From Candidatus Iainarchaeum sp. (GTDB taxonomy: Archaea > Iainarchaeota > Iainarchaeia > Iainarchaeales > 0-14-0-20-34-12), in contig JAUSKK010000029.1 in NCBI GenBank assembly GCA_030649345.1, positions 1 to 32,000 on the forward strand: a stretch of 32,000 nucleotides of DNA. Direction: 5' to 3'. Positions 6,477 to 32,000 of this stretch are shown here, one piece after another. A program made the translations under genes and the position numbers. Under the pieces are notes generated by a model. That model was given only the letters and a program-made list of their open reading frames with translations. It was not told the origin of the DNA and searched no databases. How positions within the stretch are numbered: the stretch's first letter is position 1; each line of letters opens with the position of its first letter.

Positions 6477-6554
6477 TTCTATTTTCGTTGTATCGAGCAT
6501 AGCGCAATTAAAATCAACAGATTTTAATGCACATTAAAACCAATGGTTTTAATC

Positions 6555-6611
6555 GCGAAGATACGACATCGTACCGCCGGCGATCTCCGGCGAATGGGTC
6601 CAAATCTGAGC
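6555..6611 (+). ncRNA. Possible second, degenerate C/D-box-like sRNA sharing the D-guide of the first
   Basis: It has the same geometry as the first sRNA: GCGAAGA (C-like, keeps both GA dinucleotides)-12 nt-CCGC-hairpin GCCGG-cgaucu-CCGGC-12 nt guide AUGGGUCCAAAU-CUGA (6606-6609). The last 8 guide nt plus the D box (GUCCAAAUCUGAGC) are identical to the first sRNA. The C and C' boxes are poor, hence the low confidence. Confidence 0.25.
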
Positions 6612-6613
6612 AT

Positions 6614-7720: not shown

Positions 7721-7870
7721 CGCTCTCTGCGGGAATCGGACCCGCGCCGCAACCGAACTACACAAACTTTGTCAACGATTTCTTTCTTTTTCGTCAATGT
7801 TTTTCTTTCTTTGGAAGAAAGAAAAAGGTTGTGTGACAGGGTCGCATCCTAACCACTAGACTAAGAGAGC
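7721..7870 (-). tRNA. tRNA-Asp (anticodon GUC) interrupted by a 78-nt intron at the canonical 37/38 position
   Basis: Minus-strand reading: GCUCUCU-UA-GUCU-AGUGGUUA-GGAU-G-CGACC-CUGUCA[78-nt intron, 7833-7756]C-GGUUG-CGGC-GCGGG-UCCGAUU-CCCGC-AGAGAGC-G. The acceptor stem is 7/7 complementary, the T stem 5/5, and the anticodon stem 5 bp (one G-U). U8, A14, GG in the D loop, U33 and A37 are present. The 5' exon is exactly 37 nt and the 3' exon 35 nt, with no encoded CCA. One weakness is that the T-loop reads UCCGAUU, with C where U55 is expected. Confidence 0.7.
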
Positions 7871-11748: not shown

Positions 11749-14700
11749 GTGAATAAATTTGAAAAAATTATTTTTATCAGCGTACTTTTAATTCTTTTAA
11801 CTTTTTCAGTAAATGCTGGAACTGCAAATTATATTTCAACTATTTCGTGTGTTGGCGGACAAGAATCTCAGTGTTATTCTTCAACAGCAATTGGTTCAAC
11901 TGATTGTAGTGGAGATGGTTGTTCAACTGTTTGTAAAGATGGAACTTATAAATATGGTCCAGGAACAGCCGGAGGTTCAGGCTGGATGGATTGTGTAAAC
12001 AGCAGTGGTCAACCAGTTGCTGATGGAGCTACTGGATTGTGTGCTTGGGAAAGTATTGGAAGCTGTGCACAAGACGGACAAGTATTCAATACTTCTTCAA
12101 CAGGATATTGTTCTTCTGGCTGGGGTTGTGTCTATGATCAAACAGTTACATTAAGCAATACTTGCCAAGATGGGTATACTGCAACCAGTTCATGCACTTA
12201 CAAAAAAAGAGTTTCATCTGCTTATCCAAATCAAACAACGTGTACACCAGCAACGCCCAGTTGTGCAGGTCATGAATGTTCTTCAACTAATTTAAGTTTG
12301 TGTACCAGTGAAAGTACTTGTGAAACTACAGGATCAGCCAATTGGTGTCAAACAGGATATACATCATACACTTGTCAAACAGCAGCTTGTGCAACTTGTA
12401 GTTCAAGTAATTTAAGTGCATGCTATACCAATAGTGCGTGCACCAATGCAAGCGGATATTGGAATACTACAACCAACACATGCAGTGCTCAAACGCAAAG
12501 CAGTTGTACTTCAAGCGGAAAATATTGGTGTCCAAATGCTACAGGAACCAATGAATGTCAATCTACAACTTGTACTACAAGTACATGCACGGCCAGTACT
12601 CCACAGCATTGCAGTACAACAACCAATTGCTCAAATGTAGGTGCTGTTTGGTGTGAGTCAACTCATTTATGTTATGCTTCAGGATCACAACCTTCTAATT
12701 GCAGTTCTGGAGAATGTTCAACTACCAGTGTTACCCCTTGTGTCAGCCAAGGAGATTGTACAAGTGTAGGCGGAATATGGTGTTCTGCAACCAATAATTG
12801 TAAAACCACTCAAGCTGAATGCACTCAATCTATTTCTTGTGTTCCAGGAAGTAGTCCAGCTTGTACCACAAGTGCTGAATGTTCAACTGCTTCAGGATAT
12901 TGGTGTTCTACCTACAATCAGTGTTATATTAATTCCAGTGGCTGTCCAAGTGCAGGCAGTTGTGATACTAGCAATCGATATGCTTGCACAAGTTCCAGTA
13001 CCTGCAATACAGCTGGCGGAACATGGTGCAGCATAGAAAGCACTTGTTTTAATCCAAATGAAAATTATTGTTGTTCTAATACCAACTTAACTGGTTGTGA
13101 AACAGTAGATAGATGTACTCAAATTGGCGCAGGATATTGGTGTGCCAGAAATAATACTTGTGTTAGTAGTTCCAGTCAATGTACAAATACTTCAACATGC
13201 TCTTCTTCAGATTATTATCAATGCAATGATTCAACAGGATGTTCTAGTATTGGTGGAACTTGGTGTCCAACTACGGCAACCACAGTAGCGTATTGTAGTT
13301 CTCCTGGTCAATCCTGTACTACAATTGGAATGTGTGGAAATAGTTCATGCAATGTAGGAGAAACAGCAGGTACTTGCCCAAACGATTGCAATGAAAATAC
13401 ATCAAATTATTGTTCTGTTAATAATCCAGGTGGATGCAAAGAACCAGGTACTTGTACAAGCATAGGTGGAACCTGGTGTCCTCAAACCAACACAGCTCCT
13501 GCAGGATGCGCCCCTCCTGGAATAACGTGTCAGCAAGGCCAGACTTTTTGCGGAAATTATGTTTGTGAAACTGGAGAAACTCAGTATTCTTGTTCTACAG
13601 ATTGTGGAAACCCTAAAGAACTTGTTTGCCCGCCAAAAGACAAAATAGAATATGAAAAAAAGTCCTGTACAGCCAATAAAGGAATTGGAAAAATTTACAT
13701 GGCACCGGATGGATGCGAATATTTTTCATGTGATTATTCTACGCGAACCACTTGTCCAACTGGCGATGATGAACGAAAAGCAATTGATTCTTGTAAAAAC
13801 GATGGACAAGATTGGGTTTTCAATTATTATGGAAATTGTAAATTTGTAGAATGTTTACATAAAACAGTTTGTGCCAGCAAAGAAGATTTGAAAGCCACTC
13901 AAAAGAAATGTGAGAGTTTAGGTTTAGGATATTATTATTCAAGTGATTATCAAGGCTGCCCCAATATTCAATGTAAGCAGCAAGATTTCAAAGTTGTTCC
14001 TCCAACACCTGCTCAATGCAGAACAGAATACGATGCCTATTCAGGATATAGATATGTATGTGATACAACTCAAAATACTTGCCCTAGTTTAGATAGTCAA
14101 GCAGACTCTAAACGGAAATGTTATGATAGCGGCGGAAGACCTGATATTGTAAAAGGGCCCTCTGGTTGTGAATATTATACGTGTAACTTTGGAGAAGACA
14201 ATTCGTATTTCTTTGATTATCAAGGATGTCCTTCAGGAGAAGAATTACAAAAAACAGTGAATCAATGCAATGAAGAAGGAAAAGAAGTATTTACAGAAAT
14301 TGGATTAAATGGTTGTAAGAATGCAAAATGTGTAGAGCCAGGAACAGTTGAACAAAAAACAGAAGATGCTTGTATAGGATTACCCATTGAAAAATATAAA
14401 GAACAAAAAAGCGCTTGTGAAAATCAAGACGGAATATTTGTAGAAAAATGCAGTGCCTATGAATGTATTTCTAAAAGCGATATTGGAAAATGTGAAAGCA
14501 TTGAACCTGAAAAAGCAGTGTATGAAAAATGCGCAGCTAAAGGCGGAGAATTAATTGTTCGAAGAGATGACAATAAATGTCCTGTATTTATTGAATGTGT
14601 TGGGCGAAATGAAGTAGCTGAATTTGAAGATACAGAAGTCACTGACACGATTGGAGCAGCTCAAGCTTTAGAAATTGTATTTAATTTAGAAAAACTAAAT

Positions 14701-15399
14701 TTAATTTTAGATAAATTAGAACGACAAACTGAAGAATTAAAAACATATTATGAAAGCGTTGGAAATACAGAAAATGTTGAAAGATTTGTCCGAGTAAAAG
14801 CTATGTTTCAGGCAGCCCAGCAAGAAGTTGAATCCATTAAACAATATTTGGCAGACAATGCAGATAATTTAACGATTGAAAATTTAAAAGACATTAAAAC
14901 AAAAGTCAAATATATCAAAAAAGGAGTATTGAAAGATATTTTATATGTCATGCTGGCCAAAGAACCTAAACCAGCAACCAGCACAGGAACAGATATTAAA
15001 AATTGTGAAGAAAGTGAACAATGTTTTGTCAGCAATTTAAGAGTTTGCCAGAAAGCATTTATGGAACATACTGAAGTTGGATTTTCTGGGAAAATTGAAA
15101 TTACAGGATTGGAAGAAAACAAATGCAATGTAAAAGCTGCTGCAAATTATCAAGGAGAAAGTTATGAAATGGGCTGTGCATTTGACAATTATCCATTTGC
15201 TGATTTGAACCCGGAAAGCATGCAAAAATATTGTTCTGGCACATTAATTGAAAAAATGAAAAAAGAAGGAATTCGGACAGAGCAACCTACTAGCCCAGAA
15301 TCAACTGCAGCAAGTACTACGGATGAAAAAAAAGACATTAATGATCCATTAACAGGAGAACCATTGGTAAATCCAGCAGACAACAGTGAGGGAATTTAA
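11749..15399 (+). CDS. Giant secreted cysteine-rich repeat protein (1216 aa), no membrane anchor
   Basis: A GTG start gives the signal peptide MNKFEKIIFISVLLILLTFSVNA. By hand count there are 114 Cys. About 9 Ser/Thr-rich repeats end in G-(G/A)-x-W-C, and two CGN-x2-C-x2-GE-x4-C-x2-DC modules are present. Seven ~45-aa four-Cys repeats follow, then a Cys-free coiled-coil-like stretch and a 6-Cys C-terminal domain. There are many N-x-S/T sequons. Confidence 0.85.
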   Translation: MNKFEKIIFISVLLILLTFSVNAGTANYISTISCVGGQESQCYSSTAIGSTDCSGDGCSTVCKDGTYKYGPGTAGGSGWMDCVNSSGQPVADGATGLCAWESIGSCAQDGQVFNTSSTGYCSSGWGCVYDQTVTLSNTCQDGYTATSSCTYKKRVSSAYPNQTTCTPATPSCAGHECSSTNLSLCTSESTCETTGSANWCQTGYTSYTCQTAACATCSSSNLSACYTNSACTNASGYWNTTTNTCSAQTQSSCTSSGKYWCPNATGTNECQSTTCTTSTCTASTPQHCSTTTNCSNVGAVWCESTHLCYASGSQPSNCSSGECSTTSVTPCVSQGDCTSVGGIWCSATNNCKTTQAECTQSISCVPGSSPACTTSAECSTASGYWCSTYNQCYINSSGCPSAGSCDTSNRYACTSSSTCNTAGGTWCSIESTCFNPNENYCCSNTNLTGCETVDRCTQIGAGYWCARNNTCVSSSSQCTNTSTCSSSDYYQCNDSTGCSSIGGTWCPTTATTVAYCSSPGQSCTTIGMCGNSSCNVGETAGTCPNDCNENTSNYCSVNNPGGCKEPGTCTSIGGTWCPQTNTAPAGCAPPGITCQQGQTFCGNYVCETGETQYSCSTDCGNPKELVCPPKDKIEYEKKSCTANKGIGKIYMAPDGCEYFSCDYSTRTTCPTGDDERKAIDSCKNDGQDWVFNYYGNCKFVECLHKTVCASKEDLKATQKKCESLGLGYYYSSDYQGCPNIQCKQQDFKVVPPTPAQCRTEYDAYSGYRYVCDTTQNTCPSLDSQADSKRKCYDSGGRPDIVKGPSGCEYYTCNFGEDNSYFFDYQGCPSGEELQKTVNQCNEEGKEVFTEIGLNGCKNAKCVEPGTVEQKTEDACIGLPIEKYKEQKSACENQDGIFVEKCSAYECISKSDIGKCESIEPEKAVYEKCAAKGGELIVRRDDNKCPVFIECVGRNEVAEFEDTEVTDTIGAAQALEIVFNLEKLNLILDKLERQTEELKTYYESVGNTENVERFVRVKAMFQAAQQEVESIKQYLADNADNLTIENLKDIKTKVKYIKKGVLKDILYVMLAKEPKPATSTGTDIKNCEESEQCFVSNLRVCQKAFMEHTEVGFSGKIEITGLEENKCNVKAAANYQGESYEMGCAFDNYPFADLNPESMQKYCSGTLIEKMKKEGIRTEQPTSPESTAASTTDEKKDINDPLTGEPLVNPADNSEGI

Positions 15400-15695
15400 T
15401 GACTGAAAAAGAAACTAAATCCAAAGAAGGAATTTTAGACAAAAAAATGAATCTAAGCTTTAGCATGAGCCATATTATTATTGCAGTTTTATTATTGGCA
15501 GTTATTTCATTGGCTTATGTTTTAATAACAAATCCCAATGCATTCAAGCAAAGCTTGGAGCGAACAGCTTTAGAAAATGAAACTGTTAATCCTGTAACCA
15601 CAGAACAAGAAGCCAGCCAAGCCATTACAGGAATTGGACAAGACATTAAAGGATTAAGTTCTACTTTAGATGAAATTGATCAAAGCTTGGGTTAA
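15399..15695 (+). CDS. Small single-pass membrane protein (98 aa), translationally coupled to the giant gene
   Basis: Its ATG shares one nucleotide with the upstream TAA (TAATG at 15397-15401). It has a basic N-terminus, one TM helix (IIIAVLLLAVISLAYVLI) and a ~55-aa acidic tail. Confidence 0.6.
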   Translation: MTEKETKSKEGILDKKMNLSFSMSHIIIAVLLLAVISLAYVLITNPNAFKQSLERTALENETVNPVTTEQEASQAITGIGQDIKGLSSTLDEIDQSLG

Positions 15696-15738
15696 GTAAA
15701 GTCAATGTATTTATAATAGAAAATACTTGAGTACTAGA

Positions 15739-18627
15739 ATGAAAAAGTTAATCTTATTTTTTTTAATTCTATTAGCTTTGCCTGCTTTCTCAGTTTATGA
15801 AATTGTAAATCAAACATGCACCAGCACACAACAAGGAAGTTTTACACAGGCTAATTTGTTATTGGAAACTTCAGACAGTTATTTTTTAACCTCTGATAAA
15901 AATGTATACCAGGCTCCAAAAATAGCAATAGGTACTTGGACTTTGAAAGGAAGTATTCCGTATCGAATTACTCAATTGGTAAATGATCCTGCTACAAATA
16001 CTTTGTATGCCGCTGGAACTCCTGCCAATGATGGCTGGAATTTTTATACCTACAAGTCAGTAGACCAAGGGGTTACTTGGACGCTAGTCGGCACGCCGAT
16101 TAATAGTTTGAATTATTTTTTATTTTACAGAGTAAATTCATTAAATGCCAGTAATGGATTCAACAAAATTTATTCCTTAGCCGGAGTCCCTCTTCAATGG
16201 TATGAGATTGCCAGCTTGGAAGAAGGAACACAAATTCGGGCAATTACATCCGGCAATTTTCAAGAGCATGCAGTAGGCTACAAGAATAATATTGGAACTT
16301 TGTATTCAGGACCATTTCTTAACCAGTTAACAGCCCGCGGTTCTTTGCCGGAAAATGAACAGCCTTGGGGTGATGCTTTGGGATTTTATGATGGAAACTT
16401 GTTTATGATTACCCAAAACAATGAAGGAAAAGGTTCTGTTTTTAGGTCAATGAATTCAGGAAATACTTGGGAAAAAGTATTCACGCAAGACATGGCTTTC
16501 ACTGAAATTGCCGGAAAACCTGAAACTGGAATAAATGTTTTGGCAAGCAATGGAAATATTTTTAGATCCTGGAATGGAACCACATGGATTAGTTTGGGAA
16601 CTTCTGGATTTTCTCCCATGGGTGAATTGTTATCTCCGGAAGCGGGAAATTATTTATTGGCAGTCATTACTGGAAGATTGAATCAAGTAATATGCAATGC
16701 TTGGCCTATGTTGAAAGTAAAACAAAAAAATATTTCCGCAGCACCTGGAGCTACAGTAACTTTGGATGTTTCAGATTCTACAGATTTAGAAAATCATACA
16801 ATTCAATACACTTGGAATTTTTCTAGCGGACCCCTAGGAGCGCCAGCGCCTGTTTTGAATAATTCAGCCACAGCAATTGCAACTGCAATTATGCCTAACC
16901 AAACTGGAGAATATTTTTTTGAAATTAGATTAAAAGACAACGGAAGTCCAGCAATTCTGCCAGCCCAAGGCAGTGCAGATTTAATTACAGTTACAGTTCA
17001 AGAAAATCAAGCTCCAACAGCAAATGCGGGCCCAGATATTCAATGCACAATAAATCAAAATTGCACAGTGCAAGGAATTGGAACAGATCCAGAAAATCAG
17101 TCTTTAGAATATAATTGGAATTTGGCACTGAATTCACCTCAAGGCCCAATTCAAACTGTCGGAGCAGAAGATCAAACAAATTATACTTTTACCGCAGCTC
17201 AAATTGGGACTTATATTTTAACTTTTGCAGTTACAGATAATGCCAATCAAACTGCAAAAGATCAAGTAACGATCACAATGGTTTCAGATCAAGTCAATCA
17301 CGCGCCCATAGTAAATGCTGGACCTGATGTACTTTGTGTAATTAATGAAGAGTGTACTTTAGTTGGACAAGCCAGTGATCCAGATAATGATGAATTAAAT
17401 TATTTCTGGACACCGGAAGTTATGCCAGGCAATGCCATCCCAGCACAACCACCCATTAGTCTTACTTTAGTGTTTACAGCAAACACAATTGGAAATTATA
17501 CATTTAAATTAACTGCACAAGATCGAGAAGATTTAGATGACCCGAACTTATTGGAAGCCAGTGATACAGTTAATGTAATCATGTTTGCCAGTCAAGAAGA
17601 ATTAGAAGCAGCCAATCAAGTGCCTATAGCGAATGCAGGAGTCAATCAAATTGTACACACAGGAGAAATTGTTCAATTAAATGGAAATCAAAGTTCAGAT
17701 CCAGAAGGACAAACAATAAATTATGCTTGGACTCAAGTCAGCGGACCTTTAATTACAATTCAAAACGGAAATCAAATGCTTGCAAATTTTACTCCAACTC
17801 AAATTGGAACTTATGTGTTTCGATTAAGTGTTACAGATTCTTTGGAAGCCAGTGCCAATGATGATATTAGTATTCAGGTATTGGAACAAATTTCTGGAAC
17901 ACAAACAGTCTGCGGAAACAATGTATGTGAAGAAGGAGAAAATGTTGTCAGCTGTGCGTTTGATTGTGAAATTAATTCAAGCGGAGAAAGACCAGGATTT
18001 AGTGTTCCTTTTGCGCGCGCAGGAAGAGATCAAAATGTAGAAGAAGGAGATTTTGTGATATTGGATGGAAGTACAAGCTCAGATGCAGATGAACAAGCAC
18101 TGGCTTTTGAATGGGAACAAACCAGCGGAGAAACTGTAGCCATTATTAATGCAGATCGAAGTAAAGCAATTTTTGTAGCAGGAGAAACAGGAACAGAATA
18201 TGAATTCAAATTAACAGTCACAGACGAATCCGAAAATACTGCAACTGATTTAGTTAAAGTCAAAGTAGAAACTGTGACAGCTCGAAGAACTACCGGCAGC
18301 GGACAAAACCCAACAGATACTACAGTAAATGCAGGAAACACTTTAGGAAATACATGCAGTGGAACTGTGTGTTTAGGATTTTGTTATTCAGGACAAGGAA
18401 TATGCTGTACAGACGGCTGGCATTCGAATACTGAAACATGTCAAGAGTCTGGAGCACTTCCAATTGGAAACAATGTTGATTTTAATTTAGGAACTGGAGG
18501 AATGCCTGATTTTCTAAGCTCTCCGATTTTTTTAATATTAACTGCAGTTTCAATTTTAGGCGGAATTATTGCATGGTTCTTGAAATTTAGAAAAAAAGAA
18601 CCCTATCAAAAAAAGCAAGCTATTTAA
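15739..18627 (+). CDS. Giant surface protein: signal peptide, BNR/Asp-box beta-propeller-like domain, 4-5 PKD-like Ig repeats, CGN module, C-terminal TM anchor
   Basis: ATG 15739 (MKKLILFFLILLALPAFS); the ORF track uses TTG 15727. Asp-box matches (S-x-D-x-G-x-T-W type) are KSVDQGVTWT and RSMNSGNTWE. The repeated ~95-aa units begin N(Q/H)(A/V)P(T/I)(A/V)NAGPD... with ...DP(E/D)... (Y/F)xW. VCGNNVCEEGENVVSCAFDC is present, and the C-terminus is IFLILTAVSILGGIIAWFLKFRKK. Confidence 0.85.
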   Translation: MKKLILFFLILLALPAFSVYEIVNQTCTSTQQGSFTQANLLLETSDSYFLTSDKNVYQAPKIAIGTWTLKGSIPYRITQLVNDPATNTLYAAGTPANDGWNFYTYKSVDQGVTWTLVGTPINSLNYFLFYRVNSLNASNGFNKIYSLAGVPLQWYEIASLEEGTQIRAITSGNFQEHAVGYKNNIGTLYSGPFLNQLTARGSLPENEQPWGDALGFYDGNLFMITQNNEGKGSVFRSMNSGNTWEKVFTQDMAFTEIAGKPETGINVLASNGNIFRSWNGTTWISLGTSGFSPMGELLSPEAGNYLLAVITGRLNQVICNAWPMLKVKQKNISAAPGATVTLDVSDSTDLENHTIQYTWNFSSGPLGAPAPVLNNSATAIATAIMPNQTGEYFFEIRLKDNGSPAILPAQGSADLITVTVQENQAPTANAGPDIQCTINQNCTVQGIGTDPENQSLEYNWNLALNSPQGPIQTVGAEDQTNYTFTAAQIGTYILTFAVTDNANQTAKDQVTITMVSDQVNHAPIVNAGPDVLCVINEECTLVGQASDPDNDELNYFWTPEVMPGNAIPAQPPISLTLVFTANTIGNYTFKLTAQDREDLDDPNLLEASDTVNVIMFASQEELEAANQVPIANAGVNQIVHTGEIVQLNGNQSSDPEGQTINYAWTQVSGPLITIQNGNQMLANFTPTQIGTYVFRLSVTDSLEASANDDISIQVLEQISGTQTVCGNNVCEEGENVVSCAFDCEINSSGERPGFSVPFARAGRDQNVEEGDFVILDGSTSSDADEQALAFEWEQTSGETVAIINADRSKAIFVAGETGTEYEFKLTVTDESENTATDLVKVKVETVTARRTTGSGQNPTDTTVNAGNTLGNTCSGTVCLGFCYSGQGICCTDGWHSNTETCQESGALPIGNNVDFNLGTGGMPDFLSSPIFLILTAVSILGGIIAWFLKFRKKEPYQKKQAI

Positions 18628-18650
18628 ACAATAAAGTTCTCTTTGTATAA

Positions 18651-21600
18651 ATGAATTCAAACAAAATTTTGCTTTTTTTAGTCTTAATTTTTTCAATCCA
18701 AACAGTTCAAGCTCAATGGACTGAAACCACACCTTTGCCTTTAACTGGAATGACAATTGGAAGAGATATCACACGAGCCAGTGATGGCACTTTGTATGTT
18801 GGAGGAGACGGCATTCGTGTTTATAGTGCCAACAGCAATGGAACTTCTTGGACAGATACTAGCGTACTTGGAACAGTTGCATTTAATGCATTGGCCGCCG
18901 GTGATTCTGGAAACATCTATGCATTAACTGGAACAGCAGCAGGAAGTGGGATTCATAGATACAATGGAACAACTTGGACAACGCTTAAAACATTTGACAA
19001 TATTTCCAGTGCCAATGACATAGTCTACGTTGGAAACAATACATTGTATTTTTCTTATTTTAATGATGTAAATCGTTCAACGGACGGTGGAGTGAACTGG
19101 GCTTCAACTGGGTTGGTTACAGCATTGGGTGGAAGTGCTTCATCGTATTCAGTGCAAGATTTAGATTACGATGAAACTGGAGCAATATATGCTGTAGTGC
19201 AAAGATTTGCTCCAACTCAAGCTGAAGTTTGGAGATACAATGGAACAACTTGGACACAAGTAGCTGCTCTGTTAAATTATTCTTCTTCAAGAATTTTGGC
19301 TCACAAAGAAGGTTCTGCACCAACTCAAGTTTTTATTAATAATAATACAATTTTACTCAAAGGAAGTGGTGATGGCGCATTAACTTTCAGTGAAATAAAA
19401 ACATTTACAAACTCAGTTCAAAAAATTTACAGATTAAGTGATGGAAAAATTACAGTTTTAGAAGGAGTTAAAGTATGGCGTTCAGCCAATGCAGATTCAG
19501 ATATTATTGCTGGAGCAACATTTAATGATTTGGGAAATGTTCGAAGTACAGGAACTGCTGGTGGAATAACCCAATCCGCCAACGGAAATTTATATGTTCT
19601 GGCCTATTGGCTGGGCGCAGGAGGAAGCAGTAATTTTGAATCCGGTGTTTATTATTTTGGGTCAGCACCGCCACCCAGCCAAGTTTGTGGAAATGGAACT
19701 ATTGAAAGTCCAGAAGTATGTGATGGAGCTAATTTAAATTCTCAAACTTGTTCCAGTCAAGGTTTTGCTTCTGGAACTCTGGCATGTAATGCCAATTGTT
19801 TAGGATTTAATACTTCTTCATGTGTTTCAAATCCTGTTTGTGGAAATAGTGTATGTGATGCTGGAGAAACCAGTGTAAATTGCTCCATGGATTGTGGCCC
19901 AGCTTCAACAACACCCAAAGCTTGCTGTACCAATCAAGATTGTAGTACTAGCCAAATTTGCAATCCCAGCAATCAAAGATGTGAAACAAAAACTGGAACT
20001 TCTTGTACCAGCAGAGCCAATTGTCCTGCAGGCCAAAGTTGTGTTTCTGGAATTTGTGGAAACAGTACTTCAACAGATCCAAACCGAACAGGACAAGGAA
20101 CCAATTGTAATGGAAATAATGGAATTTGCCCAATTGGATATTATTGTTCTCCTGTAACTGACACTTGTGTTCCAGGAGCAGTATGTTCAACATCATCTAC
20201 AGACATGAATAATCATACGTGTCCGCAAACTTGTGCAACTGTAACAGAACAAGGATACAGTACTACATCTACAACTTGTTTATCACAATCTTGTATTCCG
20301 ACTTTTTCAACTCAAAACATTCCGAATGGACCAGTTCAATGTTGTGGAATCAATTGTCAAACTGGACAAATTTGCGGAAGTAATGGAACTTGTCAAAACA
20401 GACAAAGATGTTCTTTACCAGCAGACTTTATTGGAGGAACTGGAAGCACAACAGGACCTTCATGCGCAACAGATACAACTTGCGCAACAGGATATAGTTG
20501 TCAAACTGGATTTTGTAGATTAGCACCTGATTGCCCAACAGGAAATACTTGCGGACAAGACAGATATTGTGCGCCTTCAAGTGCTCCAGTTTGTCCTGGA
20601 TCACAAGAGTGTGAAAGTCCATGTCAAAGATACGATACTGGGTTAGGTCAATGTGTGCAAGATAATTCTTTGCCTACTTGTTCACCTGGAGAAATTCAAT
20701 GTTGTTCAGACAGTCAATGTGGTTCAACGCAAGTATGTGTTCCAGATGGAAGTTCTACTGGAATTTGTCAAGAAAGAACTACTTTAACAGCATGTGAAAG
20801 TCAATCCAGTTACCAAGAAATAACATGTACCACCAATGCAGATTGTGCAGGACATGGAATAAATCCAATTTGTAATACTGCAAACAATAAATGTTATAAT
20901 AAAACAGGAACAACTTGCAGTCCAGGAGATACAACAAGAGGTTGTAGTCCGAATACAGAATGTTTAGAAAATTATTGTTCAACCCCAAGTCTAGAAATGG
21001 TACCAACACAAGGTTCTTGTGCACCTGGAACAACTTGTGCAACCTCAGGTCCAAATCAAAATTTATGTGTTCCTTCTGGAACAATTTGCCCCAGTTCAGG
21101 AAATACTTGCCCAATTCCAGAAACTCCAATCAACAATGTATGTTTTACCTGCCAAGGAGAAAATTGTACAATTACTGACAGTATTGAATGTCCTACAACA
21201 GGACAAACACAAGCAGGAAGTATTTGCAATACAGACACAGATTGTTCATATTACGAAAGTTGTAATATTCAAACCAATGTTTGCCAAACTTTAGCATGCA
21301 CAGGCACAGAAGTACCAGTCAATCACCGGTGTATTCCTGGCAGTGATTTTTGCCAAGATGCAACACTCAGAGAATTGGAAAGAATTATTGAAACCAATAC
21401 AACCAATAGTGAAGTAACCAGTTTACTGGAACGATTGCAGACAGAAATAGCTGCAGGAAATATAGGACAAGCACAGAATACTTTGCAAAAAATTATTGAA
21501 AAATTACCTGGAACTCAAGGAACAGATACCATTACTTTATTGCGGGAAGCCAGAACACAATTGGAAGCAGGAAATGCAGGACAAGCTCAAGCCATTTTAC

Positions 21601-21740
21601 AAAGAGCAGCCCAGCAAAGCGGAGTGGTTAGCTCAGAACAATTTTCCAACCAGCAGCAAATCCAAAATGTATTGTACGGAATCATCGGAGTTCTGACTGC
21701 AGTTATTGGAGCATTGGCCTTCTTGTATTACAAAAAATAA
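18651..21740 (+). CDS. Giant surface protein: signal peptide, BNR/Asp-box propeller-like domain, ~540-aa cysteine-rich stalk, helical repeat, C-terminal TM anchor
   Basis: Signal peptide MNSNKILLFLVLIFSIQTVQA. Propeller blades are marked by NRSTDGGVNWAST, NSNGTSWTD and RYNGTTWT (twice). VCGNGTIESPEVCDG... and VCGNSVCDAGETSVNCSMDC are present, followed by dense C-x3-(D/Q)-C-x4-6-C-x5-8-C units. The duplicated helices are EIAAGNIGQAQNTLQKI and QLEAGNAGQAQAILQRA, and the C-terminal anchor is LYGIIGVLTAVIGALAFLYYKK. Confidence 0.85.
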   Translation: MNSNKILLFLVLIFSIQTVQAQWTETTPLPLTGMTIGRDITRASDGTLYVGGDGIRVYSANSNGTSWTDTSVLGTVAFNALAAGDSGNIYALTGTAAGSGIHRYNGTTWTTLKTFDNISSANDIVYVGNNTLYFSYFNDVNRSTDGGVNWASTGLVTALGGSASSYSVQDLDYDETGAIYAVVQRFAPTQAEVWRYNGTTWTQVAALLNYSSSRILAHKEGSAPTQVFINNNTILLKGSGDGALTFSEIKTFTNSVQKIYRLSDGKITVLEGVKVWRSANADSDIIAGATFNDLGNVRSTGTAGGITQSANGNLYVLAYWLGAGGSSNFESGVYYFGSAPPPSQVCGNGTIESPEVCDGANLNSQTCSSQGFASGTLACNANCLGFNTSSCVSNPVCGNSVCDAGETSVNCSMDCGPASTTPKACCTNQDCSTSQICNPSNQRCETKTGTSCTSRANCPAGQSCVSGICGNSTSTDPNRTGQGTNCNGNNGICPIGYYCSPVTDTCVPGAVCSTSSTDMNNHTCPQTCATVTEQGYSTTSTTCLSQSCIPTFSTQNIPNGPVQCCGINCQTGQICGSNGTCQNRQRCSLPADFIGGTGSTTGPSCATDTTCATGYSCQTGFCRLAPDCPTGNTCGQDRYCAPSSAPVCPGSQECESPCQRYDTGLGQCVQDNSLPTCSPGEIQCCSDSQCGSTQVCVPDGSSTGICQERTTLTACESQSSYQEITCTTNADCAGHGINPICNTANNKCYNKTGTTCSPGDTTRGCSPNTECLENYCSTPSLEMVPTQGSCAPGTTCATSGPNQNLCVPSGTICPSSGNTCPIPETPINNVCFTCQGENCTITDSIECPTTGQTQAGSICNTDTDCSYYESCNIQTNVCQTLACTGTEVPVNHRCIPGSDFCQDATLRELERIIETNTTNSEVTSLLERLQTEIAAGNIGQAQNTLQKIIEKLPGTQGTDTITLLREARTQLEAGNAGQAQAILQRAAQQSGVVSSEQFSNQQQIQNVLYGIIGVLTAVIGALAFLYYKK

Positions 21741-24313: not shown

Positions 24314-26794
24314 ATGACGCATAACCAAAAATTCTTAATTAGTTTAGCTATTTTAGTAGTTTTGTTTTCTTTGACTGCTTTGGCTCAAGATCAACCACCT
24401 GTAGAAGGAGGAGATACACCACCAACAGATCAAGGACCACCGCCAACAGATCAACCACCAATTGAGGATCATCCACTGGAAGGCGGAGAACAACCACCTG
24501 CAGATCAACAAAGACCACCTGAAGGACAGAATCCTGAAGGAGACCCTAATTACAGACCACCAGAAGGACAAGGGCCTTATCCAGGACAAGATGGACAACA
24601 ACCTCCATTTGATCAAGGAAGACAACCTGAAGGACAAAATTTTCAAAGACCAACTACAGGCCCAGGTAACTGTCAAGGACAAGAACAATGCCAATTATAT
24701 TGTGGAGTACACCCAGAGGAATGCCAACAATGGGCTGGCCAACAAGGAGTTCAAAGACAAGGCCCAATGAATGGAGGCCAAGGCTATGGATCTGAAAGAA
24801 GATCCGGCGGAATTGGTGGACCTCAATGTGGAACACCCGAAGAATGTAGAGGTTTAGCTCAAGAATTTGGTGTTGCAAATAGTATTGGAGTACGAACAGG
24901 ACCTAGCGGATGCACCAGTGAAGAAGAATGTAAAAAAATATTTGATGAAAACCCACAAGAAGTTAGGCAATGGGCTCAACAAAATGGAATGATTGAACAC
25001 AAGGGACAATTTATTGAAGCACGCGCCGGACCCGGCGGATGTTCAAGTCCAGAAGAATGTATGACTTATTGTAGAGAAAATCCAGAATCCTGTGATCAAT
25101 TTGCTGGAAGAAGAGGACAAGGATTTGAACAAGCATTTAATAAAATTGAACAAAGAGATCAACGAAAAGAAATGCAACAAGAGCGCAGAAAAGAAATGCG
25201 ATTTGAAGGAATTCCACGCGAAATAATTGAAGCTGGAGCAGAAACAGAATTTGTTCAAATGATGGCAGCCATGGCTAAATTCAGAACCCAGCGATTGCTA
25301 ACTGAATTGGATAAAATGGAAGAACGCATTTCATTGGCTGGAACAGAATTAGGAATCCAAATCGATGGAAGCAAATTTTCAGAAATGAAAACAAAAATTG
25401 AAACTGCATTAAATGATTTAGGAAATGTAACCAATGCAGAAGAAGCCAATGCAAAAATGAAAGCTTTCTTTGAAATCATGGAAGGACCCAATGGAGTTCA
25501 AGGAGTATTTGAAAACTTTGGACAACAAATGCAAGAAAAAGTACAAGTATTGTTTGATGAAAAATTCAAACGAATGCAAACATTGCAAGAACAAATGAAA
25601 AACAAAGAACAAGAATGTAGAACTGCTGGAGACCAAATGAGACAACAACAAGAACAAAATATGCAGCAGCAAAGACAACAACAAGATGAACAGTTTAGAA
25701 CTCAGGATGAAGAAAGAAGAAGACAATACGAAGAACAAATGAGAAATCAACAAGGACAATACCCTCAAGGCGGAGATCCAAATTATAGACCACCAGAAGG
25801 ACAAGGACCTTACCCAGGCGATGGTGGACAGTACCCTCAAGGAGGAAGTTATCCTGAAGGAAGCATGCCACCAGAAGGCGGAGATTATCAGCCACCTCCA
25901 GAACAACCACCAGCCAGCAATGCAACTGCTCAACCAATTGTAATACAATTGCAAGAATTTCCAGGACCTCAAGGACCTGGCCCCAATGATTTCGGCGGAG
26001 GCTTTCCAGACGGACCCATGAACGGCGGTCCTTATGACAGCGGACAAGGATTTGGCGGACCTCAAGGACCCGGCGGATTTGGAGATGGAGAAATGCCAGC
26101 AGCTTGTCAAGAAATGCAAACACTTGGAACTGAAATGCAAGCTATTGGAGAAGAAATGAAAGCTTTAGGAGAAAAAGTACAAGGCGTATTTGGAAAACCT
26201 GAAGACCATGAGCAAGACTTTGAAGAAGAGCCTTTGCCTCCTGAATTAATTGAACAGCAAGCGCAATTGTTCATCAAAGTATTTGATTTCAAATTCAATG
26301 GAATCAAACAAAAACGAGATGAAATTGCAGGCCAAGGATTCGATGTAAAAGAATTCGATGAATTAATTGCATGGATTATTTCCAGAAAAGAAGAAGGACT
26401 CAGAATTATTCGTTCTGGAGATGAAGAAAAAATGGATGAATTCTTCAATAGCATGGGAGATTCTCAATTTGACTGGGAAGATAGAATCCGAGATTCTATT
26501 GCACGACAACAATTGGAAAAACAAATTTCCAAAGTTGAAGAATTTTTACCCAAAGCCCAAGAAGCCATTAATGCAGGAAAAGAACGAGGTTTAGATACCA
26601 GTGACTTGGAAGAAATTTACGGGGAATTGAAAGGATTGGTTGAAAATGCACGTGCACAATTAAGCCAAGGAAAAGAAATTTCTCTGCAAGATTTCAGACT
26701 ACAATTACGAGAAGTGTATCTGAATTTCCGAGAAGAATGGGTTAGCTTACGAGAAGAAGCTGCAAGAACAGGATTAATTGTACTGGCAAGGTGA
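24314..26794 (+). CDS. Secreted Pro/Gln/Gly-rich coiled-coil protein with four CxxxEEC-type motifs (826 aa), unknown function
   Basis: Signal peptide MTHNQKFLISLAILVVLFSLTALA. There are low-complexity P/Q/G/E tracts. Four related Cys motifs are present: GNCQGQEQCQLYCGVHPEECQQWA, PQCGTPEECRGLA, SGCTSEEECKKIFDENPQEVRQWA and GGCSSPEECMTYCRENPESCDQFA. Long Glu/Gln/Lys/Met-rich helical stretches follow, and there is no C-terminal anchor. Confidence 0.8.
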   Translation: MTHNQKFLISLAILVVLFSLTALAQDQPPVEGGDTPPTDQGPPPTDQPPIEDHPLEGGEQPPADQQRPPEGQNPEGDPNYRPPEGQGPYPGQDGQQPPFDQGRQPEGQNFQRPTTGPGNCQGQEQCQLYCGVHPEECQQWAGQQGVQRQGPMNGGQGYGSERRSGGIGGPQCGTPEECRGLAQEFGVANSIGVRTGPSGCTSEEECKKIFDENPQEVRQWAQQNGMIEHKGQFIEARAGPGGCSSPEECMTYCRENPESCDQFAGRRGQGFEQAFNKIEQRDQRKEMQQERRKEMRFEGIPREIIEAGAETEFVQMMAAMAKFRTQRLLTELDKMEERISLAGTELGIQIDGSKFSEMKTKIETALNDLGNVTNAEEANAKMKAFFEIMEGPNGVQGVFENFGQQMQEKVQVLFDEKFKRMQTLQEQMKNKEQECRTAGDQMRQQQEQNMQQQRQQQDEQFRTQDEERRRQYEEQMRNQQGQYPQGGDPNYRPPEGQGPYPGDGGQYPQGGSYPEGSMPPEGGDYQPPPEQPPASNATAQPIVIQLQEFPGPQGPGPNDFGGGFPDGPMNGGPYDSGQGFGGPQGPGGFGDGEMPAACQEMQTLGTEMQAIGEEMKALGEKVQGVFGKPEDHEQDFEEEPLPPELIEQQAQLFIKVFDFKFNGIKQKRDEIAGQGFDVKEFDELIAWIISRKEEGLRIIRSGDEEKMDEFFNSMGDSQFDWEDRIRDSIARQQLEKQISKVEEFLPKAQEAINAGKERGLDTSDLEEIYGELKGLVENARAQLSQGKEISLQDFRLQLREVYLNFREEWVSLREEAARTGLIVLAR

Positions 26795-28442: not shown

Positions 28443-28676
28443 GTGGCTATAAAAATCGATACTCATAATCTTGTTCCAAAGCATGTTATAATGCCTAAGG
28501 AAACACTTTCTGAGCTTTTATCTAAACTGCAAGTGGATAGCACTGAGCAATTACCGATTATTTTACGAAACGATCCATCCATTAAACGATTAAAGCCAGA
28601 AAAAGGCGATATTATTAAAATCAGCCGAAAAAGCCTGACTGCTGGAAGTTATACTTATTATAGGGTTGTGCGATGA
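28443..28676 (+). CDS. rpoH: DNA-directed RNA polymerase subunit H (Rpo5)
   Basis: 77 aa with a GTG start. HNLVPKHVIMPKETLSELLSKLQV...LPIILRNDPSIKRLKPEKGDIIKISRKS...YYRVV is the RpoH/Rpb5 C-domain pattern. Its stop overlaps the rpoB'' start (ATGA at 28673). Confidence 0.9.
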   Translation: MAIKIDTHNLVPKHVIMPKETLSELLSKLQVDSTEQLPIILRNDPSIKRLKPEKGDIIKISRKSLTAGSYTYYRVVR

Positions 28677-30139
28677 CTGATAAATGGCCTTTATTGGATT
28701 CCTATTTCAGGACCAAAAGCTTTGTAGACCAAGAAATTGCTAGTTTTGACCAATTTGTAGAAGAAAAAATGCCTGAAATTTTGGAAGAAAACAAAGAAAT
28801 TGCCCCAAAAATTGAAGAAGTTCGAATTGAATTAAGCGACATTGAAGTATTAAAACCTAGAATTATTGAAGTCGATGGTTCGCCTAGAAATGATTTTTAT
28901 CCAGTAGAAGCAAGATTGCGAAACAGAACCTATTCTGGTCCTTTGTATATTACTATGAAATTGTACAGAAGAGATGTAGAACAAGATGTACGCCGAACGT
29001 ATATCGGGGAATTACCCATTATGACCAAATCTAAGTTATGCTGGTTAAATGGAAAAACCGAAGATGAATTAATTGGCTTAGGCGAAGACCCAATGGACTT
29101 TGGCGGATATTTCATTATTAATGGAGCAGAAAAAGCATTAATGACTCAAGAAGTTTTATCCAGTGACCGAGTTCTAATTTCCAAAACAGGCAAAGATGAT
29201 GTACGTGCTGAAGTGATTAGTACTCGCGGTGCCTTCAAAGGAAAAGTTAGTGTCAACAGAAAAAACAATGGTTCTTTGAGTGTAAGCTTTCCAGCCAGTC
29301 CAAAAAAATTACGTTTATTTGTTTTAATGAAAGCTTTGGGTTTGGATACTAAAGAAAAAATAATGAATGCTTTTACTCCAGGAAAAGAAATTGAAAACGA
29401 TATTTTAGTAAATTTAGAAAGCTTGGATGTAGAAAGTGTAGAAGATGCTTTAGATCGAATTGGAAAATATGTTGCACCCGGACAAGTTATTGATTATAGA
29501 TTAAGAAGAGCGCAAGAAATTTTAGATGGATTCTTATTACCCCACATTGGTCAAACCAAAGAAGACAGACTAGCTAAAGCGTATTATTTGGGAATGATGG
29601 CCAGCAAAGCAGTTGAACGATACCATGGCTTACGTGAAGAAGATGACAAAGATCATTATGCCAACAAACGTTTAGAATTAAGTGGAAAATTAATGGAACA
29701 CTTATTTAGGTATGCTTTCAAATATTTAATTAAAGACTTAAAATTCCAAATTGACAGAACTATTACCCGAAGAAGAAAATTAAACATTAGCACTATTGTT
29801 CGACCGGATGCCATTACTGAAAGAATTCGGTTTGCTATGAGTACAGGAAACTGGATTGGACGAGCTTCCGGAGTTAGTAAATTTATGGATCGAGTCAATT
29901 ACTTGAGTCCTTTAACCGATATGCGAAAAATTAAAAGTTCATTAAACAAAAACAGAGAATTATACGAAGCCAGAGATGTTCATGGAACTCACTGGGGACG
30001 AGTTGGAGCAATTGAAACACCCGACGGCCCAAATTGTGGTTTAGTAAAAAATTTAGCCATTTTAGCTCGAGTAACTACAGATTCCAAAATTTTACCAGTT
30101 GAAGAATTATTAAAATCTAGAGGAGTAAAACTAGAATAA
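28673..30139 (+). CDS. rpoB2: DNA-directed RNA polymerase subunit B'' (N-terminal half of split Rpo2)
   Basis: 488 aa. The conserved blocks are LPIMTKSKLCWL, DFGGYFIINGAEKALMTQE, DDKDHYANKRLELSG and ARDVHGTHWGRVGAIETPDGPNCGLVKNLA. The position after rpoH is the canonical archaeal order. Confidence 0.92.
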   Translation: MTDKWPLLDSYFRTKSFVDQEIASFDQFVEEKMPEILEENKEIAPKIEEVRIELSDIEVLKPRIIEVDGSPRNDFYPVEARLRNRTYSGPLYITMKLYRRDVEQDVRRTYIGELPIMTKSKLCWLNGKTEDELIGLGEDPMDFGGYFIINGAEKALMTQEVLSSDRVLISKTGKDDVRAEVISTRGAFKGKVSVNRKNNGSLSVSFPASPKKLRLFVLMKALGLDTKEKIMNAFTPGKEIENDILVNLESLDVESVEDALDRIGKYVAPGQVIDYRLRRAQEILDGFLLPHIGQTKEDRLAKAYYLGMMASKAVERYHGLREEDDKDHYANKRLELSGKLMEHLFRYAFKYLIKDLKFQIDRTITRRRKLNISTIVRPDAITERIRFAMSTGNWIGRASGVSKFMDRVNYLSPLTDMRKIKSSLNKNRELYEARDVHGTHWGRVGAIETPDGPNCGLVKNLAILARVTTDSKILPVEELLKSRGVKLE

Positions 30140-30230
30140 GGAGAGGGTCAGGATTACCCTAAAACTGGGGAGAACCTTGGTTCTCCGCGGTTTGGAATTA
30201 TTAAAATCTAGAGGAGTCAAATTAGAGTAA
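30104..30230 (+). repeat. 36-nt direct repeat (30104-30139 and 30195-30230, 33/36 identical) flanking a 55-nt GC-rich two-hairpin element (30140-30194)
   Basis: Both copies encode ELLKSRGVKLE-stop. The three mismatches are GTA/GTC, CTA/TTA and GAA/GAG, all synonymous. By hand count the insert has 30 G+C in 55 nt, against the AT-rich background. It folds as AGGGT-caggatt-ACCCT (30144-30160) and GGAGAAC-cttg-GTTCTCC (30169-30186). Confidence 0.85.
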
Positions 30231-30291
30231 AAAAATTATATTGATTAAAGAAAATTATATTTAAAGAAAAATATTTGTGTTGTGAAAATGT

Positions 30292-32000
30292 ATGAGTAAA
30301 GAAGGATTACGAGAAAAAGCTAAAGTCTACATTAATGGAAGACTAATTGGATTCCATGACAAACCATTACAGTTAACCAAAGACATTATTGGATCTAGAA
30401 GAATCAGCCAAATTGATTCACAAATTAATGTAGCCTATGATGAAAAAACAAACGAAGTTTACATTAATTCTGATTCAGGCCGAGTACAAAGACCAGTCAT
30501 TGTAGTTGAAAATGGAAAATCTAAATTAACCGAAGAAATTGTCAAAAAATTACAAAAACAAGAACTCAACTGGAATGACTTAGTGGAAAAAGGAATTATT
30601 GAATACTTGGATGCAGAAGAAGAAGAAAATGCATACGTGGCCATTGATGATGAAAGCATTACAGCAGAACATACCCATTTAGAAATTAATCCAATTGGAA
30701 TTGAAAGTATTATTACCAGCATGATTCCTTACTTAGAACACAACATGGCTGGAAAAGCATTGCATGGAGCCAAAATGTTCAAACAAGCTGCCGGCATTAG
30801 CTACGTGAATCCAAAATACAGAATGGACACAGAAGGATACTTACTTTATTATCCTCAAAAAGCTTTGGTTAAAAGCAAGACCATGGACTTGTTAAAAATG
30901 GATGTACGCCCGCAAAGTCAAAATTTTGTGGTAGCCATTATGCCTTTTTATGGATGGAATGCATTTGATGCAGTAGTCTTGAACCGAGGGGCTGTAGAAC
31001 GCGGATTGGGAAGAATGGCTTATTATAGAACTTATGATGCAGTACAAAAAAGATATCCAGGCGGACAAAAAGACAAATTTGAAATTCCAACCGAAGAAAC
31101 TGTAGGATACTTAGGAGCAGAATATTACAAATCTTTAGGCGAAGACGGTTTAGCTGAAGTAGAAGCTAAAGTAGATGGAAAAACTGCAGTTATTGGAAAA
31201 ACCAGTCCTCCGCGATTTTTAGAAGAAGTCTCTGAATTTGGAGTAGTAAAAGAAAAACGAAGAGAAGCTAGTGAAACTGTACGAAAACAAAAATCAGGAC
31301 ATGTAGATGAAGTCATTATCACCGAAGATTTAGATGGAAGTATTTTGGCTAAAATTAAAGTTCGAAGCGACATGATTCCAGAAGTAGGAGACAAATTCAG
31401 TTCACGACACGGACAAAAAGGAGTTGTGGGAGCCGTCATTCCAGAAGAAGACATGCCATTTACTCAAGATGGAATTAAACCAGACTTAATGTTAAACCCG
31501 CACTCAATTCCAAGCCGTATGACAGTAGGACACTTATTGGAAATGTTGGCCGGAAAAGCCAGCAGTATGCAAGGAGAACAAATTGATGGAACACCCTTCA
31601 ATAATGTTCCTTTAAGTGAATTGAAAAAAATGTTAAAAGAACATGGTTTACGCGAAGATGGAAAAGAAATTTTCTACGATGGAATTACTGGAGAACGAAT
31701 TGAAGGAGAAATTTTCACAGGAGTTGTTGCTTACAGAAGATTGTATCACATGGTAGCTCACAAAATGCAAGCTAGAAGCCGAGGACCAGTACAAATTTTA
31801 ACACGACAGCCAACCGAAGGAAAAGAAAAAGAAGGTGGCCTAAGATTTGGTGAAATGGAAGCCGAAACTTTAGTTGGACACGGAAGCAGTATGTTATTGC
31901 ATGAAAAAATGATTGAAGACTCAGACAAAGTTACTGAATTGGTTTGTGAAAAATGCGGAATCATTGCAGTCAACGACAAAATCAGAAACAGAAAATACTG
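30292..32000 (+). CDS. rpoB1: DNA-directed RNA polymerase subunit B' (C-terminal half of split Rpo2), 3'-truncated by the window edge
   Basis: Not in the ORF track because it has no stop in the window. I translated it by hand from ATG 30292 (MSKEGLREKAKVYINGRLIGFHD...) to the end without a stop. The conserved blocks are LLYYPQKAL, GDKFSSRHGQKGVVG, LNPHSIPSRMTVGHLLE, YRRLYHMVAHKMQARSRGP, GGLRFGEMEAETL and the Zn-ribbon start CEKCG. Confidence 0.92.
   Translation, partial: MSKEGLREKAKVYINGRLIGFHDKPLQLTKDIIGSRRISQIDSQINVAYDEKTNEVYINSDSGRVQRPVIVVENGKSKLTEEIVKKLQKQELNWNDLVEKGIIEYLDAEEEENAYVAIDDESITAEHTHLEINPIGIESIITSMIPYLEHNMAGKALHGAKMFKQAAGISYVNPKYRMDTEGYLLYYPQKALVKSKTMDLLKMDVRPQSQNFVVAIMPFYGWNAFDAVVLNRGAVERGLGRMAYYRTYDAVQKRYPGGQKDKFEIPTEETVGYLGAEYYKSLGEDGLAEVEAKVDGKTAVIGKTSPPRFLEEVSEFGVVKEKRREASETVRKQKSGHVDEVIITEDLDGSILAKIKVRSDMIPEVGDKFSSRHGQKGVVGAVIPEEDMPFTQDGIKPDLMLNPHSIPSRMTVGHLLEMLAGKASSMQGEQIDGTPFNNVPLSELKKMLKEHGLREDGKEIFYDGITGERIEGEIFTGVVAYRRLYHMVAHKMQARSRGPVQILTRQPTEGKEKEGGLRFGEMEAETLVGHGSSMLLHEKMIEDSDKVTELVCEKCGIIAVNDKIRNRKY

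Follow-up and report, generated by a model that had tools for sequence, protein, structure and literature searches.

Background

Bulge-helix-bulge (BHB) introns transpose between tRNA genes in the Thermoproteales, and this is thought to take place at the DNA level by a mechanism that is unknown, as PMC4090602 summarises Fujishima et al. (2010). Mobile endonuclease open reading frames (ORFs) make C-terminal duplications in fungal mitochondria, as in atp6 of Allomyces and in atp6, atp9, cox2 and nad3 of Glomus (PMC3630166). Double-hairpin elements and GC clusters occur in AT-rich mitochondrial genomes (Paquin et al. 2000, as cited in PMC3787672). The locus described here bears some likeness to each of these. 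It lies in the first 32,000 nucleotides (nt) of contig JAUSKK010000029.1 (assembly GCA_030649345.1), referred to below as the window, which derives from a metagenome-assembled genome of a Candidatus Diapherotrites (DPANN) archaeon. The end of the RNA polymerase gene rpoB'' is present twice there, on either side of a GC-rich insert of 55 nt that precedes rpoB'. Read on the minus strand, this insert is, on the alignments given below, homologous to the canonical-position BHB intron of tRNA-Asn(GUU) in two Nanoarchaeota/Pacearchaeota-like DPANN contigs.

Like BHB tRNA introns, the insert matches genuine tRNA-Asn introns from the splice site onwards, folds into two hairpins and belongs to a family of patchy distribution, as for introns that are gained and lost. 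Unlike the product of BHB intron transposition, the copy in the window lies antisense and outside any tRNA gene, lacks the 3' ~11 nt, has no BHB motif and is flanked by a 36-nt target duplication, none being described for transposition in that section of PMC4090602. In the fungal mitochondrial duplications the gene end likewise stands twice around an insertion, with the upstream in-phase copy expressed, the downstream copy a relic and the differences mostly silent (PMC3630166). The present locus departs from them in having no endonuclease ORF and an insert of 55 nt rather than ~1 kb, in residing on an archaeal chromosome, and in that nothing marks its upstream tail as foreign. With the mitochondrial double-hairpin elements the insert shares its small size, G+C-rich two-hairpin form, AT-rich genome and position at a gene boundary. 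Unlike those elements, which are multi-copy within one genome, it occurs once in 32 kb and in none of the GTDB representative genomes, and the sequences related to it are tRNA introns.

The duplicated end of rpoB''

The locus consists of three parts.

30104–30139, plus strand: copy 1, GAATTATTAAAATCTAGAGGAGTAAAACTAGAATAA, the functional last 11 codons and TAA of rpoB''; its tail ELLKSRGVKLE fits the homolog end GV[KR]L[EK]
30140–30194, plus strand: the insert, 55 nt, with hairpins at 30144–30160 and 30162–30193
30195–30230, plus strand: copy 2, GAATTATTAAAATCTAGAGGAGTCAAATTAGAGTAA, a relic second gene tail that stands in the +1 frame with respect to rpoB'' and is presumably not translated

A preliminary description of this DNA, made from the sequence alone, had reported that the last 11 codons and stop of rpoB'' are duplicated, and this is borne out: the copies are identical at 33 of 36 positions and both translate as ELLKSRGVKLE followed by a stop. 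Its statement that they differ by three third-position changes holds in part. There are three differences, at repeat positions 24, 28 and 33 (GTA/GTC, CTA/TTA and GAA/GAG), and all three are synonymous, but only two fall at third codon positions, the other being the first position of a Leu codon. The probability of three synonymous changes out of three is 0.01–0.04 if both copies drifted and 0.05–0.12 if one drifted. The corresponding tails of relatives (GTT AAG/AAA CTG/TTG GAG TAG) are too diverged to polarise these differences.

The 36-nt pair, at a spacing of 91 nt, is the sole short-range repeat so long and so similar among the matches listed in a repeat search of the window. A 33/36 match within 200 nt has an estimated expectation of ~1e-8 in 32 kb of window composition, and the duplication is therefore not due to chance. 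The longest exact run common to the two copies is 23 nt. Upstream of 30104 they share just a weak TTG or CnGTT similarity, a possible microhomology by sequence that would lie outside the repeat proper. Copy 1 had been taken as the genuine end of rpoB'', and correctly so, as homologs of 485–496 amino acids (aa) end in GVKLE or GVKLK.

The duplication does not appear to be a product of assembly. Logan contig L001 (4393 nt), assembled separately from run SRR13727527, agrees with the window at every position over 3379 nt, both copies included. Assembly k-mers, moreover, are usually longer than the 23-nt shared run, which makes an artefact of repeat collapse or chimerism unlikely. One such artefact would place two strain alleles of the tail in tandem, an idea that gains from the metagenomic origin of the genome and from the silent copy differences, which are of the kind that separates strains. 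It has to contend with the agreement of the independent assembly over 3.4 kb, with the short exact run, and with the need for reads across both new junctions; without the duplication, the implied genome would have rpoB'' disrupted by a frameshifting 55-nt insert. An artefact of this form seems to us very unlikely.

The insert itself was described as a GC-rich segment with two hairpins, and this stands: it contains 30 G+C in 55 nt (window mean ~0.35), and both stems form as stated, one of 5 bp with a 7-nt loop and one of 7 bp with a CUUG loop, the latter reaching 13 bp if one G.G mismatch is allowed. The 26 strongest 40-nt GC islands of the window are mostly coding and do not include the insert. 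The predicted plus-strand fold has a free energy of −24.5 kcal/mol (z = −2.9), with 1 of 200 shuffled sequences as stable, and that of the minus strand is similar (−18.5 kcal/mol, z = −2.5). No Rfam family matches at the insert at gathering or permissive thresholds, the best sub-threshold score being 20.7 bits against a threshold of 48.5. Neither ARAGORN nor Rfam detects a tRNA at the insert; ARAGORN missed intron-containing tRNAs and found no tRNA at all. The insert is not inside a tRNA gene, as it follows the rpoB'' stop and lies between the two gene-tail copies. A box C/D small RNA (sRNA) was rejected for the insert, C and D boxes being absent.

Homology of the insert to tRNA-Asn introns

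An exact scan of the JGI metagenomes with a 20-mer from the hairpin returned 14 matches. Thirteen are unrelated hairpins, several of them followed by T-runs. The remaining contig, L016, alone also contains the 12-mer TAAGGAGAGGGT, with order and orientation conserved, and the chance of this extra match is estimated at ~3e-5 over all 14 matches. L016 is an AT-rich archaeal contig from Hainich groundwater that encodes MCM, TBP and a KH-domain protein. The sequence that it shares with the window is the 53-nt intron of a tRNA-Asn(GUU), on the opposite strand and at the canonical 37/38 position. This tRNA scores 56.7 bits with the Rfam tRNA model, and its BHB has a 5-bp outer helix and a CUGU/GCAG central helix. 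The alignment divides the insert as follows.

30137–30148, minus strand: block A, ACCCTCTCCTTA, matching the L016 tRNA-Asn intron at 12/12 positions (alignments A1 and A2; fuzzy search)
30149–30165, no strand assigned: middle segment of 17 nt, in the window copy only (4 nt in the introns), which supplies the 3' arm of hairpin 1
30166–30192, minus strand: block B, AACCGCGGAGAACCAAGGTTCTCCCCA, agreeing at 25/27 positions with the L016 intron at its 5' end, from the 5' splice site onwards; the inner stem of hairpin 2 (30169–30186) lies within it

Block B is the best blastn match between L016 and the window (E 1.5e-4), and nhmmer with a model of the intron family finds the window insert at E 8e-11. 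The homology begins at the first base of the intron, excludes the tRNA exons, and stops ~11 nt short of the 3' splice site. As the copy-1 stop is complementary to the terminal TTA of block A, gene tail and insert overlap by 3 nt.

A homologous intron of 57 nt occupies the same tRNA position in L031, also from Hainich, in which a protein cluster is labelled Nanoarchaeota. It came to light independently of the 20-mer, through synteny, in the position that follows the KH-domain gene. In blocks that distinguish L016 from L031, the window copy is the same as L016. Such identity is surprising across DPANN phyla and, as a sequence pattern, hints at recent transfer. The window, L016 and L031 copies each fold into two hairpins, with the second hairpin using different pairing partners in each copy and the first hairpin of L031 carrying an uncompensated A.C mismatch. 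The preliminary description had proposed a search for related copies of the insert and a comparison of their structure; the search led to these two tRNA-Asn introns, and conservation of structure across the family, as far as predicted folds indicate, is weak.

The same 20-nt hairpin occurs in two Saccharibacteria contigs (L010, 4900–5010; L014, 3450–3560), where GGAGAGGGG lies ~50 nt upstream and the whole stands between two bacterial tRNA genes (nhmmer E ~1e-5). We judge this likeness to the intron family to be most likely a coincidence. An origin of the insert from a circular intron, by circular permutation or a rolling circle, was rejected on the ground that the order of the blocks does not fit.

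Further copies were sought widely. The 32-kb window holds no second copy of the insert at <=3 mismatches or by nhmmer. Exact matches to the 20-mer in the GTDB representative genomes number two, both of them unrelated bacterial hairpins. Five exact scans of IMG/VR (hairpin; block A plus hairpin; both intron blocks; rpoB'' tail; exon-intron junction) were empty in four cases and gave one chance match, in a GC-rich contig. A blastn search of phages and plasmids found no match. The ends of the insert, GGAGAGGG... and ...CGGTTTG, are not inverted repeats. An element resembling a miniature inverted-repeat transposable element or an insertion sequence was rejected, terminal inverted repeats being absent, as are further copies in the window, the GTDB representative genomes and IMG/VR. 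The earlier suggestion of a mobile mini-element that restores the gene end it disrupts thus keeps one part of its appeal, in that related copies do exist in another context and lineage, but there are no terminal inverted repeats, no BHB and no second copy in the window, and nothing points to a designed restoration of the gene end.

A scan for BHB motifs, with its geometry taken from the L016 tRNA, recovers two control introns (those of the window tRNA-Asp and the L016 tRNA-Asn). Applied to both strands of 30040–30300, it yields weak AU-rich candidates only, with boundaries that make no sense. An active BHB intron at the insert was therefore rejected, the motif being absent on either strand.

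The control in the window is a tRNA-Asp(GUC) at 7721–7870 (minus strand), which Rfam finds and ARAGORN misses. It carries a 78-nt, AT-rich canonical intron, with a BHB made up of a 7-bp outer helix, a CUGU/GUAG central helix and a 4-bp inner helix. This intron was rejected as a source of the insert, being AT-rich and unrelated.

Intron turnover at the tRNA-Asn locus

The L016 tRNA lies in a syntenic locus (eIF-1A, KH protein, tRNA-Asn) for which six states are seen, in contigs whose KH proteins are 77–89% identical to that of L016.

L016, 840–967, minus strand: tRNA-Asn with a 53-nt BHB intron
L031, 1792–1922, plus strand: tRNA-Asn with a 57-nt BHB intron
L029, 1491–1580: tRNA-Asn with a 17-nt BHB intron, unrelated-looking
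L027, 2053–2154: tRNA-Asn with a 29-nt BHB intron
L030, 1753–1825: tRNA-Asn without an intron
L032, ~1763–1836: tRNA-Asn without an intron
L025 (GCA_964510715.1, CAZEBJ010000003.1), 2072–2610: tRNA-Asn(GUU) with a group I intron in the anticodon loop

The group I intron of L025, whose host is a Pacearchaeota/Nanoarchaeota-like DPANN archaeon, matches Rfam RF00028 with 86.7 bits (E 1.3e-21) at 2356–2566, and an ORF-like stretch precedes its core. To our knowledge, group I introns are unusual in archaeal tRNA genes. The presence, absence and varied size of introns at this tRNA-Asn site indicate rapid intron turnover there. Around the introns of L016 and L031 there is no target duplication comparable to that in the window.

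This pattern of presence and absence bears on whether the insert arose by mobility of the intron itself, with intron DNA, or cDNA of an excised intron, integrating at a non-tRNA target with a target-site duplication of 33–36 nt, possibly in passage from a Nanoarchaeota/Pacearchaeota-like archaeon to the Diapherotrites. Such mobility would explain why the match has its edge exactly at the 5' splice site and leaves out the tRNA exons, and it would suit the identity of Diapherotrites and Nanoarchaeota-like blocks at positions where L016 and L031, of the same clade, differ. DNA-level transposition of tRNA introns has moreover been described in the Thermoproteales (PMC4090602). However, the case stands alone, the fragment stops ~11 nt short of the 3' end of the intron, and it lies antisense to transcription. 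The window copy cannot form a BHB motif, target duplications are not seen around the L016 and L031 introns, and no further copies occur in the window, the GTDB representative genomes or IMG/VR. Intron mobility in this sense seems to us rather unlikely.

The rpoB''–rpoB' junction and its relatives

The genes around the insert are arranged as follows.

28443–28676, plus strand: rpoH (Rpb5 C-terminal domain; Pfam PF01191, E 2.5e-24), with a 4-nt overlap with the start of rpoB''
28673–30139, plus strand: rpoB'', 488 aa, intact and of normal length, with 100% coverage against homologs of 485–496 aa with Rpb2 domains 1–3
30231–30291, plus strand: AT-rich spacer of 61 nt, with a repeated AAAATTATATT motif and a TATA-like box, TTATATTTAAAG, at 30255–30266
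30292–32000, plus strand: rpoB', continuing past the end of the window, with Pfam Rpb2 domains 4–7; the gene call was made in L001

These coordinates confirm the 152-nt gap between rpoB'' and rpoB' and the 4-nt overlap of rpoH and rpoB'' to which attention had been drawn. The closest relatives of the RpoB'' protein (MDO8428309.1) have 77–78% amino-acid identity, and none nearer is found among 5.8 billion proteins. The preliminary description had also suggested comparing the junction in related genomes, and the insert proves to be absent from all four compared (P0002, P0003, P0004 and P0006). In P0002, P0003 and P0006 the gap between rpoB'' and rpoB' is 4–5 nt (e.g. TAG ATTGC ATG). P0004, at 77% RpoB'' identity, has a purely AT-rich spacer of 181 nt at this point (L006, 3968–4148) from which the GC element is absent. 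The gene order MscS-rpoH-rpoB''-rpoB' is kept in P0002, P0003 and P0004. Since relatives lack the insert, the 91 nt of insert and second tail, as well as the 61-nt AT-rich spacer, are lineage-specific. The 181-nt spacer in P0004, set against 4–5 nt elsewhere, therefore marks the rpoB split site as a recurrent place for insertions in this clade. The rpoB'' tail of P0004 is itself divergent, with GVGFR at its end.

The insert might also stem from homology-facilitated illegitimate recombination with a related strain, the donor contributing copy 1 and the 55 nt, and copy 2 being the resident tail; this is the scar of the preliminary description in its literal form. All three differences are synonymous, as if both tails had been functional in their own genomes, and the mitochondrial duplications offer a precedent in which an in-phase foreign C-terminus is followed by the native relic (PMC3630166). 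The donor, however, must already have possessed an intron-like segment after rpoB'', which no relative examined does; there is no endonuclease or other ORF between the copies; three differences make for weak statistics; and no closer strain exists among the 5.8 billion proteins for a mosaic check of upstream rpoB''. We regard this as quite unlikely.

The TATA-like box TTATATTTAAAG lies ~25–30 nt upstream of the rpoB' ATG (30292), and other genes in the window are preceded at similar distances by TATTTAAAG/TTTATA boxes like it. By sequence, rpoB' is probably served by its own promoter at this box. The spacer also holds two to three tandem versions of AAAA(A)TTATATT, which may reflect growth by local duplication. 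It is TATA-like on both strands, and an antisense transcript across the insert is conceivable.

The arrangement invites the proposal that the hairpins act as a cis-acting RNA, either a 3' stabiliser or a processing site parting the rpoH-rpoB'' transcript from an rpoB' with a promoter of its own, or that they form part of a small antisense RNA. The stable fold on both strands, the apparent TATA-like box of rpoB' and the TATA-like AT-rich boxes on the minus strand of the spacer are consistent with this. Against it stand the lack of an Rfam match, the lack of a plus-strand oligo-T terminator after the hairpins, and the fact that relatives manage without the element. In addition, the L031 hairpin carries its A.C mismatch uncompensated, and relative to transcription the window copy is reversed with respect to the tRNA introns. 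We find such a role distinctly improbable.

Reading frames across the insert

In the translational bypassing of T4 gene 60, take-off and landing codons are matched, a stop follows the take-off codon, and the gap of ~50 nt is structured; the byp elements of mitochondria are comparable both to this layout and to double-hairpin elements. The locus has a similar appearance, with GAA/GAA codons, a stop directly after the would-be take-off codon and a structured gap of ~50–58 nt. Unlike in gene 60, bypassing is not needed for a functional RpoB'', and no homolog has an extended product. The resemblance is in fact automatic, as the GAA-stop-hairpin-GAA layout results from duplication of the tail.

A recoding signal was among the explanations first offered. 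It would involve either a +1 frameshift at GAA-U-AAG or a hop from GAA (30134–30136) to GAA (30195–30197) over the stop and insert, giving an RpoB'' with a KERVRITLKLGRTLVLRGL extension or with a tandem GVKLE(E)LLKSRGVKLE tail. An open +1 frame had been claimed, correctly; it reads NKERVRITLKLGRTLVLRGLELLKSRGVKLE up to a stop, and the identical GAA codons around a stop and a 55-nt hairpin-forming gap do look like a bypass. An open frame is nothing special here, however: the rpoB'' frame past its own stop is likewise open across the insert, and of the three frames only the third is closed. Termination at the normal stop already gives a complete protein whose end is conserved, relatives lack the insert, and nothing selects for an extension. 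All 120 homologs listed are of 485–496 aa and end in GV[KR]L[EK], none being an extended RpoB''. With no Rfam match at the insert either, the recoding or processing signal is not upheld, and production of either extended protein is scarcely credible.

CRISPR-Cas systems are uncommon in DPANN archaea, which counts against a further possibility, namely off-target integration of the Cas1-Cas2 type. In this case a foreign prespacer of 55–58 nt would have entered and a 36-nt pseudo-repeat would have been duplicated, leaving a one-spacer proto-CRISPR unit. The architecture of a 36-nt repeat, a unique insert and a second 36-nt repeat fits, as does the match of the insert to DNA of another lineage. 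Off-target integration that duplicates a stretch of about repeat length around a unique, perhaps foreign insert is on record (Nivala et al. 2018, as cited in PMC6698737). Unlike in such events, there are no cas, integrase or transposase genes and no CRISPR array in the 32-kb window, spacers are typically shorter than the 55 nt of the insert, and the "repeats" consist of coding sequence from the end of a gene. This origin is highly improbable.

Origin of the locus

On balance, it seems reasonably probable that the locus is a fixed, non-functional and probably neutral insertion scar, in which a fragment derived from a tRNA intron was captured antisense together with a duplication of the target, the joining probably being mediated by microhomology. 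A fragment of ~56 nt from the tRNA-Asn(GUU) 37/38 BHB intron family would have been joined in antisense orientation, either within the final 11 codons of rpoB'' or directly behind them. On the simplest account, a replication fork would have stalled, or the DNA broken, at the end of rpoB''. Repair would then have copied a short ectopic template, the antisense intron sequence, and resumed 33–36 nt upstream, producing the order tail, insert, tail. The joining itself would most likely have been filler-DNA capture or a replication template switch, guided by microhomologies of 2–3 nt (TAA at one junction, TT(G) at the other), a length typical of such events. The three synonymous differences would post-date the event, with purifying selection on copy 1 and drift on copy 2. 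The insert would retain the two-hairpin fold of the intron without a role as an intron or in recoding. As the upstream tail and stop are complete, RpoB'' is unchanged; rpoB' would have lost its close coupling to the rpoB'' stop and now begins 152 nt downstream, with a TATA-like box of its own as a probable promoter.

Of the explanations first put forward, that of a recombination or insertion scar comes nearest to this. Its outline fits, in that the insert is absent in relatives and homologous sequence exists elsewhere, but it also had the incoming fragment arrive with a gene end attached. In the other genomes the homologous copies have tRNA exons on either side and no rpoB'' tail, and the tail copy therefore most likely comes from the target. 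There is no homing-endonuclease ORF between the copies, only 55 nt without any ORF.

Several observations weigh against a scar of intron origin. Compared with the introns, the window copy has a 13-nt indel and is short of the last ~11 nt. Just two other members of the family were found in exact-match scans of the collections, both from one clade and one aquifer (Hainich). The junction microhomologies, at just 2–3 nt, could be a coincidence. Three silent differences out of three are somewhat unexpected if copy 2 drifted freely, and are slightly better explained by two selected tails, whether through a foreign allele or through translation of copy 2. The hairpins may also have acquired a function, given that a stable fold (z = −2.9) has been retained.

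Other features of the window

Two adjacent G+C-rich stretches lie downstream of a gene for an RsmB/NOP2-like methyltransferase, at 6409–6476 and 6545–6614 (plus strand), and have a common 24-nt 3' end, (C)GA.TG.GTCCAAATCTGAGC.TT. The first contains ATGATGA and CTGA boxes and matches sR1, an archaeal family of box C/D sRNAs, below threshold (21.3 bits, E 0.002). From these sequence features, the two stretches are probably tandem box C/D guide RNAs. Elsewhere, an ORF of 826 aa at 24314–26794 (plus strand) has no Pfam match and many internal Pro/Gly/Gln-rich repeats (e.g. 24539–24605 and 25772–25838). Upstream of it, at 11986–21740 (plus strand), are three very large ORFs of ~960–1140 aa. All four may encode DPANN surface proteins.

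Conclusions

For annotation, the locus is a reminder that an open +1 frame and a layout of GAA, stop, hairpin and GAA can mimic recoding signals. If the insert is just filler DNA from repair, it is a harmless curiosity. The locus is also a case of an essential, tightly packed operon tolerating an insertion, with the tail duplication preserving RpoB'' and with rpoB' apparently having its own promoter. The spread of tRNA introns between tRNA genes is known and its mechanism is unknown (section of PMC4090602 cited above), and an ectopic fragment that is cut at the splice site and accompanied by a long duplication would be a rare footprint of the joining step. If intron mobility were true, this would be the first footprint of DNA-level transposition of archaeal tRNA introns of the splicing-endonuclease type, and the passage of intron sequence between co-occurring DPANN lineages would also follow.

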